DNA from: an uncultured Chloroflexia bacterium
Lineage (GTDB): Bacteria > Chloroflexota > Limnocylindria > Limnocylindrales > CSP1-4
Length of the DNA: 64,000 bases
Assembly (NCBI GenBank): GCA_963752475.1
Contig: CAVVYR010000006.1
Span: 352,001 to 416,000, forward strand
Direction of reading: 5' to 3'
Shown: positions 830 through 4,784 of the stretch, piece by piece
How positions within the stretch are numbered: position 1 is the first letter of the stretch
How the letters are laid out: each line of letters starts with the position of its first letter
Made by a program: the position numbers and the translations under genes
The notes under the pieces: generated by a model
The model's input: only the letters and a program-made list of their open reading frames with translations
What the model was told of the DNA's origin: nothing
Databases searched by the model: none

Positions 830-1069
830 TCAGGCCGCTTCGTAGGTCGCGAGGACGGTGCCTACCACCGCGTCCGCGCCGGCCTCGACGAGGATCTCGG
901 TCAGGCGTCCCGCGGCCGGCATCTCCAGGTCGACGTTGGCCTTCTCGGTCTCGATCTCGGCGATGACCTCACCCTCCATGACCGTGTCGCCGACAGCCTT
1001 GAGCCAGGCGCTCACGCGGGCTTCATCGGTCTCGGCACCGAGGTTGGGCATCTTGATGGGGAGGCTCAC
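830..1069 (-). CDS. Stand-alone biotin/lipoyl-attachment domain protein (about 79 aa)
   Basis: IKMPNLG...EIETEKANVDL lipoyl motif; GTG start at 1069 formed at the IS junction, with SD-like AGGAAGAGGG at 1077-1086 inside the IS end. Confidence 0.85.
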   Translation of the reverse strand: MSLPIKMPNLGAETDEARVSAWLKAVGDTVMEGEVIAEIETEKANVDLEMPAAGRLTEILVEAGADAVVGTVLATYEAA

Positions 1070-1089
1070 TGGTGCACCCTCTTCCTGTC

Positions 1090-1300
1090 GGTAGTCGCAG
1101 ATCGACTGCCGATGCACCCGAGGTGCCGTCGGGTCACTGCCCCGCTCGCTCGAACCTTCGAGGTCCAGCATGAGTTCCGCAGGGCCCGGCGGTCATCCGG
1201 GACGCCGTGACCGTCGACAGGGCTGTGCGCCATGGCCATCACCGGCCGGGAGCGCCGATCAGTGAGCTGACAGGCAGATGCGTCCCGGCACCGAGATGCG
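1090..1300 (+). ncRNA. Putative IS110 bridge RNA (boundaries approximate)
   Basis: GCATGAG 1168-1174 is the reverse complement of the target right flank; ACAGGGCT 1217-1224 equals the donor left flank; CAGTGAG 1260-1266 is the reverse complement of the donor right flank. Confidence 0.65.
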
Positions 1301-1338
1301 GGTGCCTCCCCACTGGGATCAGCAGCGAGGAGGCTGAC

Positions 1339-2607
1339 ATGCAGTCTGCCAGTATCACCCCGAGTCGGGGCTCGTCCGACCAGCCCGTCAGCGTCGCCGT
1401 CACCGGTGGCGTGGACTGGGCCAGCGCCGATCATGCCGTGGCCGTCGTCGACGACGATGGCCGCCAGCTCGCCCGCGAGCGCGTCGAGCACACCGCCGCG
1501 GGCCTGCGGGCGATGGTGCGGTTCCTGGCCGATCATGGCGTGGCCGAGGTCGCCATCGAGCGTGGCGACGGCCCGGTGGTCGAGGCCCTGCTCGACGCCG
1601 GGCTGACCGTCGTCGTCATCAGCCCCAACCAGCTCAAGGGCCTCCGTTCGCGCTACGGCTCGGCCGGCAACAAGGACGACCGCTTCGACGCCTTCGTGCT
1701 CGCCGACACCCTGCGCACCGACCGGGCCCGGCTTCGCCCGCTGACCCAGGACACCGAGGCCACGCGGACCCTGCGCGCCACCGTGCGGGCCCGTCGCGAC
1801 CTGGTCAGGCACCGCGTCGCGGTGTGCAACCAGCTTCGCGCCCACCTGCAGGCCACCTTCCCCGGCGTGGTCGGCCTGTTCGCAGAGCTGGACTCGCCGA
1901 TCAGCCTGGCCTTCCTGGCCCGCTTCGACTCCCAGGCACGTGCCGACTGGCTCTCCCCCGGGCGGCTGGCGGCCTGGCTGGCCAGCGTCGGCTACAGCGG
2001 CCGCAAGGACCCCGCCGACCTCCATGCCCGACTGCAGGCCGCACCCCGGGGCCCGGTCGGACCCGACGGTGCCGCCCGGGCCCATGTCACCCGCGCCCTG
2101 CTCAGCGTGCTCGACGGCCTGGTCGAGCAGATCGGGACCCTCGAGGCGCAGATCACCGAGCAGCTCGCCCTTCACGCCGACGCCCACATCTTCCGGTCCC
2201 TGCCCCGGAGCGGCACCGTCCGCGCCGCCCGGCTGCTCGCCGAGATCGGCGACGTCCGCGCCCGCTTCCCCGACGCCGCCTCCCTGGCCTGCCTGGCCGG
2301 CGTCGCGCCCTCGACCAGACAGTCCGGCAAGCACCGAGCCGTCACGTTCCGCTGGGCGGTCGACAAGGAGCTCCGCGACGCGGTCTGCGACTTCGCCGGC
2401 GACTCCCGACGCGCCAACCCCTGGGCCGCGAAGATCTATGACGACGCCATCGCCCGGGGCAAGGACCACCCCCACGCGACCCGCATCCTGGCCCGTGCCT
2501 GGCTCGGCGTGATCTGGCGCTGCTGGCAGGATGACGCCGCCTACGAACCCGCCCGACACCACGCCCTCCAGGCCATGCAGGACACCGCCATGGCGGCCCA
2601 GGGTTGA
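1339..2607 (+). CDS. IS110 transposase/recombinase
   Basis: DEDD RuvC-like motifs (GVDWA, AIER, KDDRFDA) and C-terminal AGVAPSTRQSGK; RBS GAGGAGG before ATG 1339. Confidence 0.95.
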   Translation: MQSASITPSRGSSDQPVSVAVTGGVDWASADHAVAVVDDDGRQLARERVEHTAAGLRAMVRFLADHGVAEVAIERGDGPVVEALLDAGLTVVVISPNQLKGLRSRYGSAGNKDDRFDAFVLADTLRTDRARLRPLTQDTEATRTLRATVRARRDLVRHRVAVCNQLRAHLQATFPGVVGLFAELDSPISLAFLARFDSQARADWLSPGRLAAWLASVGYSGRKDPADLHARLQAAPRGPVGPDGAARAHVTRALLSVLDGLVEQIGTLEAQITEQLALHADAHIFRSLPRSGTVRAARLLAEIGDVRARFPDAASLACLAGVAPSTRQSGKHRAVTFRWAVDKELRDAVCDFAGDSRRANPWAAKIYDDAIARGKDHPHATRILARAWLGVIWRCWQDDAAYEPARHHALQAMQDTAMAAQG

Positions 2608-2618
2608 CACAGGGCTAC

Positions 2619-4784
2619 TCATGCGTCGTCCTTTCCGGCCGCGGTCATGATGGCGGCCTCGATGTCGGCGTCCTGGATGTGCACGAAGTCCTCGAGCGGC
2701 TTGCTCACCGGCGAGTAGGCATCGAGGCCGGTCACGCGCAAGGGCGCGCTGCGCAGGAGCGCGTGCAGGTCGGGCTGCAGGTAGTCCAGGATGCGCCCGC
2801 CCATCGAGAGCGTGCGCTGGGCATCCTCGGCGATGACGAGCGCCCCCGTGCGAGCGACCGAATCCAGCACGGCCGCGCGCGGGAAGCTGGGCTCGTCGAG
2901 CCAGCGCGGGTCGAGGACCTCGGCTTCGACGCCGCGGTCGGCCAGCGTGGCGGTCACCTCTGCCACACGCGTGGCCGCGTAGCCCCAGGTCAGGACGGTC
3001 ACATCGCGCCCTGATCGCACCAGGCGTGCCTTCCCGAACTCGACCACGTGGTCGAAGCCGGCGCCCGGGAGCACACCCGTGATCTTGGCCAGGCGATGGT
3101 CGTCGATGATGAGCACCGGGTCACGACTGAGCACGGCCGCGTTCCAGCAGCCGACGTAGTCGGCCGGGGTCGTGGGTGCGGCCACGCGCCAGCCGGGATA
3201 GGACGTGAACAGGCCGGCCGGGTCGCAGGAGTGCTGCGGTCCGTAGCCGCGCCCCCGGGCGATCTGCGTGCGCGCGATGACGGGCACCTCGTGGTCGCCG
3301 CCATACATGTAGCGGCTCTTGGCGATGTGGTTGAAGAGCTGGTCGGTGGCCTCGAGTACGAAGTCGGGGTACATGAACTCGATGATCGGATGCATGCCCG
3401 CGAGCGCCGCTCCGAGGGCTGCGCCACTGAAGCCGTTCTCGCAGATGGGCGTCGAGAGGAGCTGCTGCGGGCGCGAGGCCACGGCTGACCGGGTCATGCC
3501 CACCGTGCCGCCGCCGAGGTGGCCGACCTCCTCGCCCAGGTAGATGGCCTCTGGGTCACGCTCGAGCGTGCGACCGATGACGCCCTGCGCGGCCTCGGCG
3601 TAGGTGACCGGCGCAGCCTCAGGGTCCGGCGTCGCGTCGAGGCGCTCGTAAGGGAGGTCCGGGAGGCCCGGGCCGAGCATGCCGCGATGGGCGTCCTCGA
3701 CCGGCGGGTAGAGCTCGGGCGGGATGGCTGGTCCGTCGTCGGTCTCGACCGTCAGTGCCGCCACGCAGCGGGCCACGAGCGCGTTGGCCAGGCCCTGCAC
3801 GTGCTGCACTTGCTCGGCACTGAGCAGCTCGGCTTCGATCACGCCGCGAGGCCAGGCGACCGCCGGGTCGCGATCCTTCCACTCGCGCTCCTCGTCCTTG
3901 CTGCGGTACTTGAAGGCCGAGCCGGGGAGGGGACCGTTCTGGTGGTAGTAGCGGTAGGTCACGGCTTCGACGAAGACCGGCCCGTGGGTGACCGCATGCT
4001 CGCGTGCTTGTGCCATCGCCTCGTATACCGCCACCGGGTCCATGCCGTCGACCACGAGCGCGGGCATGTCGTAGCCCGCGGCGCGCTTGGCCAGGCGCGT
4101 GAAGCCGGCCGTCTCCTGCACCGTGGTAGCGACCGAGTACTGGTTGTTCTCCAGCAGCAGGATGAGCGGCAGATCCCAGGCCCGCGCCAGTGCCGCCGCT
4201 TCGTGGAAGGCACCGATCTGGCTGGCACCGTCGCCGAACGAAGCCACGCCCACGTCACCCGTCCCGCGCAGCTTCGAGGCCAGGGCATAGCCGCCGGCGG
4301 GCGGGATGCCACCACCCACGATAGCCGTGGTCATGACACCGCCTTCGCGGTCCCACAGGTGCATCGAGCCGCCGCGGCCGTGGCAGAGCCCTTGTTCGAG
4401 GCCCATGATCTCGGCCATCGTGCGCTGCACGGGTTCGGCCATGGCCTCGGTCACCGTCTCGGCCGTGAAGGGGTCGAAGTCATCCGGGGTAGCCGAGAGC
4501 AGCAGCTTGGCCACCACGTCGTGATGGGCGCGATGGGTCGAGGTCAGCCAGTCACTCGGGCGCAAGGCCAGTGCCGCGCCCGTGGCCGTGGCCTCCTGGC
4601 CGATGCTCGAGTGCAGCGGTCCGTGCACCAGGCCCGCGTTGTCGAGCAGCCACTTCTCGAAGCGACGGATGGTCCCGATGCTGAGGATGGCCAGCCCCAG
4701 GCGGCGCTTGGGCGTGCCGGCGAGCACGTCCGTGGACAGCTCGTAGCGGGTGAGGCCGGGCGTCGTCGTCGGCTCTGCGGTCAT
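2619..4784 (-). CDS. Fused E1 alpha/beta TPP-dependent 2-oxoacid/acetoin dehydrogenase-like protein
   Basis: HSSIGQEA, GRGGSMH, GDGA...ENNQY TPP motif; beta half with TPICENG, EFMYPDF, GPQHS. Confidence 0.92.
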   Translation of the reverse strand: MTAEPTTTPGLTRYELSTDVLAGTPKRRLGLAILSIGTIRRFEKWLLDNAGLVHGPLHSSIGQEATATGAALALRPSDWLTSTHRAHHDVVAKLLLSATPDDFDPFTAETVTEAMAEPVQRTMAEIMGLEQGLCHGRGGSMHLWDREGGVMTTAIVGGGIPPAGGYALASKLRGTGDVGVASFGDGASQIGAFHEAAALARAWDLPLILLLENNQYSVATTVQETAGFTRLAKRAAGYDMPALVVDGMDPVAVYEAMAQAREHAVTHGPVFVEAVTYRYYHQNGPLPGSAFKYRSKDEEREWKDRDPAVAWPRGVIEAELLSAEQVQHVQGLANALVARCVAALTVETDDGPAIPPELYPPVEDAHRGMLGPGLPDLPYERLDATPDPEAAPVTYAEAAQGVIGRTLERDPEAIYLGEEVGHLGGGTVGMTRSAVASRPQQLLSTPICENGFSGAALGAALAGMHPIIEFMYPDFVLEATDQLFNHIAKSRYMYGGDHEVPVIARTQIARGRGYGPQHSCDPAGLFTSYPGWRVAAPTTPADYVGCWNAAVLSRDPVLIIDDHRLAKITGVLPGAGFDHVVEFGKARLVRSGRDVTVLTWGYAATRVAEVTATLADRGVEAEVLDPRWLDEPSFPRAAVLDSVARTGALVIAEDAQRTLSMGGRILDYLQPDLHALLRSAPLRVTGLDAYSPVSKPLEDFVHIQDADIEAAIMTAAGKDDA

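Follow-up and report, generated by a model that had tools for sequence, protein, structure and literature searches.

The described elements closest to the one reported here are IS621, IS900 and ISEc11. In the accessible text of the two papers on IS621 of E. coli, all four guide pairings of the bridge RNA include the core dinucleotide (PMC11208160), cleavage is directly after CT and the handshake guides pair after strand exchange (PMC11208158), and the promoter has a -35 in the right end that is completed by the left end in the circle (PMC11208160). IS900 of Mycobacterium avium subsp. paratuberculosis carries hed, an open reading frame on the opposite strand that spans the element and is without a start codon or ribosome-binding site of its own, and it inserts at host translation-initiation signals, according to the accessible part of PMC8141618. 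For IS1111/IS110 seekRNA elements such as ISEc11, it is the RNA that selects a specific site (Siddiquee et al. 2024, PMC11187229, likewise accessible in part). The subject here is an IS110-family element at positions 1067 to 2619 of the window, that is, of the whole 64,000-nucleotide stretch analysed (uncultured Chloroflexia bacterium, contig CAVVYR010000006.1, positions 352,001 to 416,000 of the forward strand). The best explanation of its features is that it is very probably an intact insertion sequence of the IS110 group which moves by bridge-RNA-guided recombination, start-codon capture included. A sequence-only reading of the window had already proposed a bridge-RNA element of the IS110/IS621 type, and this is borne out by the protein family, the RNA structure and the guides.

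The element, its gene and its core are placed as follows.

1067 to 2619, plus strand: IS110-family element, delimited by the copies in its own genome, the empty paralogous site L004 and the limits of conservation in about 90 relatives
1339 to 2607, plus strand: transposase or bridge recombinase of 422 amino acids, assigned by Pfam, NCBIfam and alignment with IS621
1065 to 1066, no strand: left copy of the core CT (right copy at 2618-2619), CT being all that is common to both junctions in relatives

With one copy of the CT core counted in, the element is 1553 bp, and conservation among the relatives ends at its boundaries, 1067 and 2619. Its left end is a long non-coding stretch of 272 nucleotides (1067-1338), its right end runs for only 10 nucleotides past the stop codon, and at the junctions only CT(CA) is repeated, with no duplication beyond the core. 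No subterminal inverted repeats are shown by the element, and the layout is that of the IS110 group. The transposase matches Pfam DEDD_Tnp_IS110 (PF01548, E-value 2e-36) and Transposase_20 (PF02371, 1.2e-18), and it scores 180.3 bits, against a cut-off of 140, with NCBIfam NF033542, 'IS110 family RNA-guided transposase'. Its D, E, D and D residues and the serine of SG align with the IS621 recombinase (PDB 8wt6), albeit distantly; both the RuvC-like DEDD domain and the Tnp domain with its catalytic serine are present.

The genome (4.25 Mb, 68.1% G+C) has two full copies of the element, called identical, one of which is the window copy, and a third copy that is truncated at the 5' end. This third copy (L003, C6:339362-340421) is without the first 564 nucleotides, comprising the left end and the gene start, and one base pair is deleted from its right end. 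The flank to the right of it is again CT-CATGC, followed by a reverse-strand Shine-Dalgarno (SD) sequence. A paralogous E1/lipoyl-protein locus of the same genome (L004, C16:4895-5053), with 78-86% identity to the window flanks, is uninterrupted at the place where the window copy is inserted and was used as a stand-in for the empty site. The only joint in contigs that skips the element (X2) connects 1060 to 2618 across 4 intervening letters, with 6 differences beyond the joint; it is this paralogous locus and not an empty allele.

The protein was found in 24 of 401 sampled genomes of the same order, G000 among them. A scan of species-representative genomes gave at least 456 relatives, and the best 80 of these (67-93% identity) were used. 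The upstream alignment holds 92 loci at 57% identity or above, and the structure work was done on 73 distinct sequences; three loci were left out of the guide tables (L039, L059 and L060, with Ns, a contig end or a rearranged match). The lineage of the window element comprises about 50 distinct elements, in records labelled Actinomycetota and in others. More distant clades were read by eye, these being clade C (45-49% identity), clade D (48%) and clade E (38-40%).

Within the left end, a hairpin and two modules are recognised in the RNA.

1087 to 1113, plus strand: 5' hairpin preceding the guide modules (fold of -17.2 kcal/mol, z-score -3.99)
1127 to 1191, plus strand: target-binding module, from RNAalifold and pair counts in the 73 sequences
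1199 to 1286, plus strand: donor-binding module, with helices 3 to 5 paired at 93-100%

Each module in the RNAalifold structure consists of a stem, an internal loop and a hairpin. The basal stem of the target-binding module pairs 1127-1135 and 1137-1140 with 1179-1191, and its top hairpin pairs 1152-1155 with 1162-1165; this basal stem, helix 1, has 13 pairs, 10 of them with compensatory changes, and is 99.6% paired. The basal pairs of the donor-binding module are 1199-1205 with 1280-1286 and 1211-1213 with 1272-1274, its top hairpin is 1227-1230 with 1252-1255, and compensatory change is seen in 10 of the 14 pairs of helices 3 to 5. For the cleaned structure as a whole, the paired share of cells is 98.7%; shuffling gives 90.7%, and sliding the partners gives 34-44%. 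Compensatory changes are found in 23 of 31 pairs, and none of 500 shuffles reaches any of five measures. The two modules are thus backed by covariation, and the bridge-RNA architecture is almost certainly real.

In the 5' hairpin, compensatory differences were noticed by eye. Single-sequence minimum free energy folds, in which the guides pair with each other or with the stems and which surpass shuffles by a modest margin (z-scores -2.2 to -2.7), were set aside for the architecture. Position 1184, in the basal stem of the target-binding module, is G in the window copy and A in the other full copy and in all contigs compared, giving U:G rather than U:A with pairing retained. A scan of 900-2800 with Rfam 15 (E-value of 10 or less) found no bridge-RNA family among its four matches, which are at chance level (ApoB, EAV_LTH twice and ROSE_3; E-values 0.86 to 7.3). 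This would suit the view that there is no guide RNA, and that the motif matches described below are protein-binding subterminal repeats or chance.

Three guides in the internal loops match the DNA directly.

1168 to 1176, plus strand: right target guide GCATGAG (1168-1174) with handshake bases TT (1175-1176), on the 3' side of loop 1
1217 to 1224, plus strand: left donor guide ACAGGGCT, identical to right-end positions 2609-2616
1260 to 1268, plus strand: right donor guide CAGTGAG (1260-1266), reverse-complementary to 1065-1071, with handshake bases CT (1267-1268)

The strand logic for these guides was taken from the accessible text on IS621 (PMC11208160). In relatives, the right target guide is the 7 nucleotides preceding a conserved T(T/A)C. 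It is a perfect 7/7 complement of the core and right flank in 59 of 72 non-redundant sites, and it matches at 6/7 or better in 69 of them. There are 22 distinct versions of this guide, with an observed mean match of 6.74 compared with 4.95 when permuted and a maximum of 5.39 in 2000 permutations. Examples of guide and site are TCATGAG with CT-CATGA, CTGTGAG with CT-CACAG, CTCCGAG with CT-CGGAG, and CTAAGAG with CT-CTTAG. The 3' side of loop 1 is therefore complementary to, and covaries with, the core and right target in their top strand.

Loop 2, in turn, matches the element's own right and left ends. In 67 of 75 relatives the left donor guide repeats the right end without any mismatch, and a C/T difference covaries (ATAGGGCT with ATAGGGCT, 9 cases). 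In all clades this guide stops 1 nucleotide short of the core, ACAGGGCT being followed by G(T/A)G opposite A-CT; the core is included in the right target, right donor and left target guides. The reverse complement of the right donor guide stands at the start of the homologous left end in 84 of 87 loci and is the sole such match in 83. Seven variant pairs covary here, including CAGTAAG/CTTACTG, CAGCAAG/CTTGCTG, CAATGAG/CTCATTG, CGATGAG/CTCATCG and CAGTGAC/GTCACTG. The handshake bases pair with the non-cognate DNA: in 42 of 46 combinations the first handshake base of loop 1 forms a pair with the final base of the donor (T:A, A:T, G:C), and the handshake C of loop 2 is opposite the G preceding the target core in 77 of 84 sites.

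Per 270-nucleotide left end, the counts expected from genome k-mer frequencies are 0.002 for ACAGGGCT, 0.009 for CAGTGAG and 0.02 for GCATGAG, and each occurs once, far beyond chance. Taken with the covariation of guide and DNA over 22 target and 7 donor variants, with the position of the guides in internal loops of a structure that has strong compensatory change, and with a protein from the family in which the bridge-RNA mechanism was demonstrated, this makes protein-binding repeats or chance a very improbable source of the matches. The bridge RNA is the preferred account, and for three of the four guides the sequence-only reading had it right: GCATGAG and both members of the donor loop lie in internal loops and covary with flanks or element ends. 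Its motif coordinates are all correct, for these three as for TCGGGTCACT (1129-1138), CACCCT (1075-1080) and TTGACA (2604-2609).

The fourth guide, for the left side of the target, lies elsewhere than had been claimed.

1129 to 1138, plus strand: the stretch named as left target guide, in fact the 5' strand of the basal stem (alignment columns 26-35)
1142 to 1150, plus strand: left target guide CCGCTCGCT, 7 nucleotides plus the core CT, placed by homology on the 5' side of the internal loop

The earlier proposal had TCGGGTCACT as a guide in a loop, CTCA as a 4-bp core, and the joined guides GCATGAGTGACCCG as the ideal target. The letters TCGGGTCACT are indeed there, and CTCA is present at both window junctions (1065-1068 and 2618-2621); all three copies in the genome share it between their two junctions. 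However, 1129-1138 is one strand of the 13-bp stem with 10 covarying pairs, fully paired except for a bulged A at 1136; column 28/99, for example, has GC 45 times, AU 18 times and GU 6 times. By that proposal's own criterion, that a guide should not be buried in a stem, this stretch is refuted as a guide. Its 6/10 match to the target is at chance level, since a same-sense match of at least 6/10 to the left flank is reached in 2000 of 2000 left-end shuffles; the real left end has five such 6/10 places and one 8/10 place (at 1326).

With regard to the core, donor and target share only CT in L011, L012 and L013, CTC in L076 and L061, and GT in clade C. Positions 3 and 4 covary with the right guides, such as CTCCGAG with CT-CGGAG and CAGTAAG with CT-TACTG. 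The core is therefore CT, and the CA after it belongs to the arms, where it is read by the right guides and, in relatives, differs between donor and target. A loop guide at 1129-1138 with a CTCA core and a joined ideal target is thus hardly credible.

The left target guide that is supported instead was first placed by eye at 1141-1146, and alignment shifted it to 1142-1150. At 23 sites with divergent guides, it matches the left flank at 4.96/7, as against 2.57 for random flanks. L094 and L109 match at 5-6/7 in the 1142-1150 register; in L109, the guide is ACGAGCG and the flank GCGAGCG. In the window lineage, the left guide is frozen as CNGCTCGCT and the flanks are essentially random (3.13/7 vs 2.93, n=47). 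The left flank in these 47 sites stands out only at -1, with G in 46, and at -2, with C in 27. The match of the window guide is 2/7 plus CT, and the lineage matches its targets only at G+CT. An extra recognition of GGGG at -7 to -4, present in three of four close-clade sites, is not seen in the 47-site lineage. A relaxed left guide had been predicted; the left arm is relaxed in natural insertions, but not by way of the guide that had been named. As a natural pattern, the targeting of start codons with one arm is upheld.

In the proposed mechanism, an RNA of about 200 nucleotides from the left end (about 1087-1290) would fold into the 5' hairpin and the two modules. Of the target guides, both in loop 1, the left would lie at 1142-1150 and the right, GCAUGAG, at 1168-1174; of the donor guides, both in loop 2, the left would be ACAGGGCU (1217-1224) and the right CAGUGAG (1260-1266). 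Each right guide would be followed by one handshake base. Crossover would take place at the CT core. In the window lineage, the right guide would do nearly all of the targeting work, leaving the left flank free, and natural sites would have in common the motif G-CT-CA plus 3 programmable bases (here GCTCATGC).

The place where the window copy is inserted is the start codon of a lipoyl-protein gene.

830 to 1069, minus strand: displaced host gene for a lipoyl-domain protein (Pfam Biotin_lipoyl), where periodicity of G+C at third codon positions (GC3) begins exactly
2619 to 4784, minus strand: upstream host gene for a 2-oxoacid dehydrogenase E1 (Pfam E1_dh, Transket_pyr, Transketolase_C)

On the minus strand, the right junction reads G-C-ATG-AG, in which ATG is the start of the lipoyl-protein gene, and the TGA stop of the E1 gene overlaps this captured ATG as ATGA. 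The displaced gene now opens with an in-frame GTG (1069-1067) contributed by the end of the element; its paralog in L004 starts ATG AGC, with the same N-terminal pattern. In the 92-100% clade, each of the 4 independent sites has an SD and an ATG, and GC3 periodicity starts exactly at this ATG. Periodicity was used to recognise gene starts because the length of an open reading frame does not by itself discriminate at 68% G+C. In the genome itself, 57 of 339 GCATGAGC sites are gene-start-like, 36 of those with an SD (11% of sites). Across the family, resemblance to a gene start is seen in 21 of the 40 sites that have ATG, GTG or TTG and in none of the 16 others. On the other strand the guide would spell N-N-ATG-AG, and because it does so the element lands on start codons, in one orientation and often at ATGA overlaps in operons. 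Programming for start codons had been claimed in the sequence-only reading from the joined guides, as the string GC-ATG-AGT-GAC-CCG. That string was built on a chance match and has no standing, although the real target does hold a gene start; the start-codon reading derives from the right guide and the core (CAT-G/AG, other strand).

The captured start codon opens onto a reading frame that runs the length of the element.

1066 to 2622, minus strand: antisense frame of 518 codons over the whole element, from the captured host ATG (2622-2620) to a TGA (1068-1066)

This frame crosses the right end, the transposase gene and the entire left end, and its TGA at the junction overlaps the in-frame GTG (1069-1067), after which AGC CTC CCC is the displaced host gene. 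The junction TGA is the first antisense stop in 51 of 67 distinct elements, while the other two antisense frames have 2-25 stops. The length of the whole element leaves a remainder of 2 on division by 3 in 54 of the 67, across at least 20 distinct lengths; for the left end the remainder is 1 in 47 of 55, and these cover 15 distinct lengths. The frame is intact in 49 of 54 elements with a guide that spells ATG or GTG, compared with 2 of 13 others; by distinct guide, this is 11 of 13 compared with 2 of 9. Of 9 elements in clades C and D, 7 retain it; all 4 of clade E, where the target is a non-start site inside another gene, have lost it. Both marks of IS900-type hed are found, these being a complementary-strand frame over the whole element that has neither start codon nor ribosome-binding site of its own, and insertion in one orientation at initiation signals.

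It could be argued that the bridge RNA is real and that the start-codon link and the antisense frame are by-products of it, with nothing translated. Antisense stops require the sense codons TTA, CTA and TCA, which are rare at 68% G+C. The frame, however, also crosses the non-coding left end of 253-310 nucleotides, where 15 distinct lengths are all in frame while the other antisense frames have 0-4 stops and the sense frames 0-6. As to the sites, an 8-mer containing A and T in a genome of 68% G+C would by this argument occur mostly near gene borders, with harmful insertions purged, and the 57 of 339 motif sites are gene-start-like anyway; yet 4 of 4 close-clade sites are starts with SD and ATG, against 11% of motif sites. 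The antisense product has no Pfam family match, as the argument would have it. It accounts less well for the relatives without an ATG or GTG guide, which have 2-7 stops and out-of-frame lengths, and for the way the frame ends, which is always with a junction TGA overlapping a GTG or ATG that is in frame. The by-product account is therefore rather unlikely, and comparison of the relatives suggests that selection for an open antisense frame is likely.

Ribosomes from the captured host SD and ATG would read the antisense frame across the element and would stop at the left-junction TGA, which overlaps the GTG that rebuilds the host gene (GTG AGC ...). The GTGA overlap could then restart the host gene, and such a relay would limit polarity and damage. 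This function is a tentative suggestion from the arrangement of the frame. It is possible, though doubtful, that the lineage has evolved a near-silent residence in operons, combining a tuned (A/G)TG-AG guide, a relaxed left guide and a whole-element antisense relay. If this were true, the relaxed left guide would admit codons 2-4 of any gene, the conserved CA after the core would serve TG-A overlaps, and retargeting off start codons would let the frame decay.

A promoter that forms only in the circle had also been predicted.

1075 to 1080, plus strand: -10-like hexamer CACCCT of the presumed circle-junction promoter, in the same column in relatives
2604 to 2609, plus strand: TTGACA, presumed -35 of the junction promoter, conserved near the transposase end

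The layout given for it is correct: once circularised, TTGACA would be 18 nucleotides before CACCCT (12 from 2610-2621 and 6 from 1069-1074), and both TTGACA and an nAnnnT hexamer are conserved. Most of about 110 loci have a hexamer of the TTGA(C/T) type close to the end of the transposase, and TTGACA is 8 nucleotides before the core in most loci with the right end present (7 in L070). In the CACCCT column, relatives have CACCAT, TACCTT, TACCCT and GACCAT, with A2 and T6 invariant by eye. In the excised circle, TTGACA and the left-end nAnnnT, 18 bp apart, would presumably drive the RNA and the transposase. The transposase stop TGA (2605-2607) is inside TTGACA, the presumed -35 and the gene end being the same bases.

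One further pairing is seen next to the transposase gene.

1304 to 1334, plus strand: GCCTCC (1304-1309), able to pair with the transposase SD GGAGGC (1329-1334) in a single-sequence fold

This pairing could occlude the ribosome-binding site of the transposase; the z-score of the fold, -0.84, is not significant, and the sequence is nearly invariant in relatives. The overlapping stretch GCCTCCCCA (about 1304-1312) is complementary to the left flank in the window, and this is read as coincidence because every relative conserves the stretch, irrespective of its own flank.

Some relatives depart from the pattern of the window element. In the sub-lineage of L076, L079, L091, L098, L099, L103, L104, L107 and L117, the 5' hairpin is duplicated and the left end is about 45 nucleotides longer. 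Every insertion of this sub-lineage lies in the same repeated host sequence, ..TTGTCG-CT-CAGAGG(C/T)GGGCA.., with a left guide that fits well (6/7 in most cases) and an antisense frame that is interrupted. L024 to L027 (38-40% identity) are all at the same conserved site, ..CCTGGCAGCG-CT-GCCGGGTCCAC.., apparently within another coding sequence, and their antisense frame has 1-13 stops. The target of L014 resembles the element's own right end (GGTCTA-CT-CA) and is in a short tandem repeat, and L019 and L021 have partial tandem duplications of the start of the left end.

A number of observations weigh against the account given here of a guided element that captures start codons. Not all four guide pairings include the core, the left donor guide being without it, unlike the description of IS621. 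The left target guide mismatches the window flank at 5/7, and mismatches in this guide are poorly tolerated by IS621 in the accessible text of PMC11208160; for this reason, the natural sites could be rare survivors and not preferred targets. Among the start-type sites, 19 of 40 were not recognised as gene starts by GC3 periodicity. Codon alignment of the antisense frame with a gene of high G+C content by itself favours openness, and the Fisher p of 2e-7 for frame against guide type is overstated because the relatives are not independent. CACCCT is a weak -10 and could on the other strand be an SD-like stretch before the GTG. No circle junction, in the form of a back-joint, is found in the contigs compared, which cannot show absence. 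Contigs from RNA libraries cover 1064-1378 (X10, from a 95-98% relative) and 1123-1362 (X17), and such contigs cannot show transcription, strand or ends.

The bridge RNA itself has been textbook material since 2024, and the window copy adds a well-resolved example. The likeness to IS621, as far as the accessible descriptions go, extends to the DEDD and serine recombinase, the non-coding RNA with two internal loops in the left end upstream of the gene, the CT core, the handshake bases after the right guides, and a presumed -35 in the right end that would be completed in the circle. The proteins are distant, with 422 amino acids here against 328 residues in the IS621 chain and an E-value of 1.9e-8. 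The left donor guide here pairs donor -9 to -2, short of the core; a frozen left target guide, CNGCTCGCT, goes unmatched in 47 natural sites; and variation in the right guide is confined to 3 bases. A gene start is targeted here, whereas the IS621 target is described as a repeated intergenic element, and the element here is one continuous antisense reading frame. A whole lineage targets with essentially one arm (G-CT-CA-NNN), unlike IS621, which needs both, and this bears on the guide pairing that bridge recombinases require and on the off-target behaviour of engineered versions.

ISEc11 is similar in its DEDD transposase and in having a non-coding region whose RNA picks the site. The IS1111 group places this RNA differently; the element here has the IS110-group layout, with a long left end, a right end of 10 nucleotides and no subterminal inverted repeats shown.

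It is with IS900 that the antisense frame can be compared, by description only and from a partial text. Both are of the IS110 family, with an antisense frame over the whole element and insertion at initiation signals. A search of the literature, accessible in part, found no link between hed and bridge-RNA guides and no description of a stop/restart overlap that rebuilds a host gene. The in-frame indels, and the decay of the frame where the guide does not spell a start codon, are the first selection-type evidence found for a maintained hed-like antisense frame spanning an element. Insertion of IS900 is between the ribosome-binding site and the start codon, whereas the element here inserts after ATG+AG, within codon 2. 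The hed observation on IS900 is said to be that of Doran et al. in 1997 and to have gone unexplained. With a guide RNA that couples the antisense frame to host initiation signals, it becomes a directly testable model.

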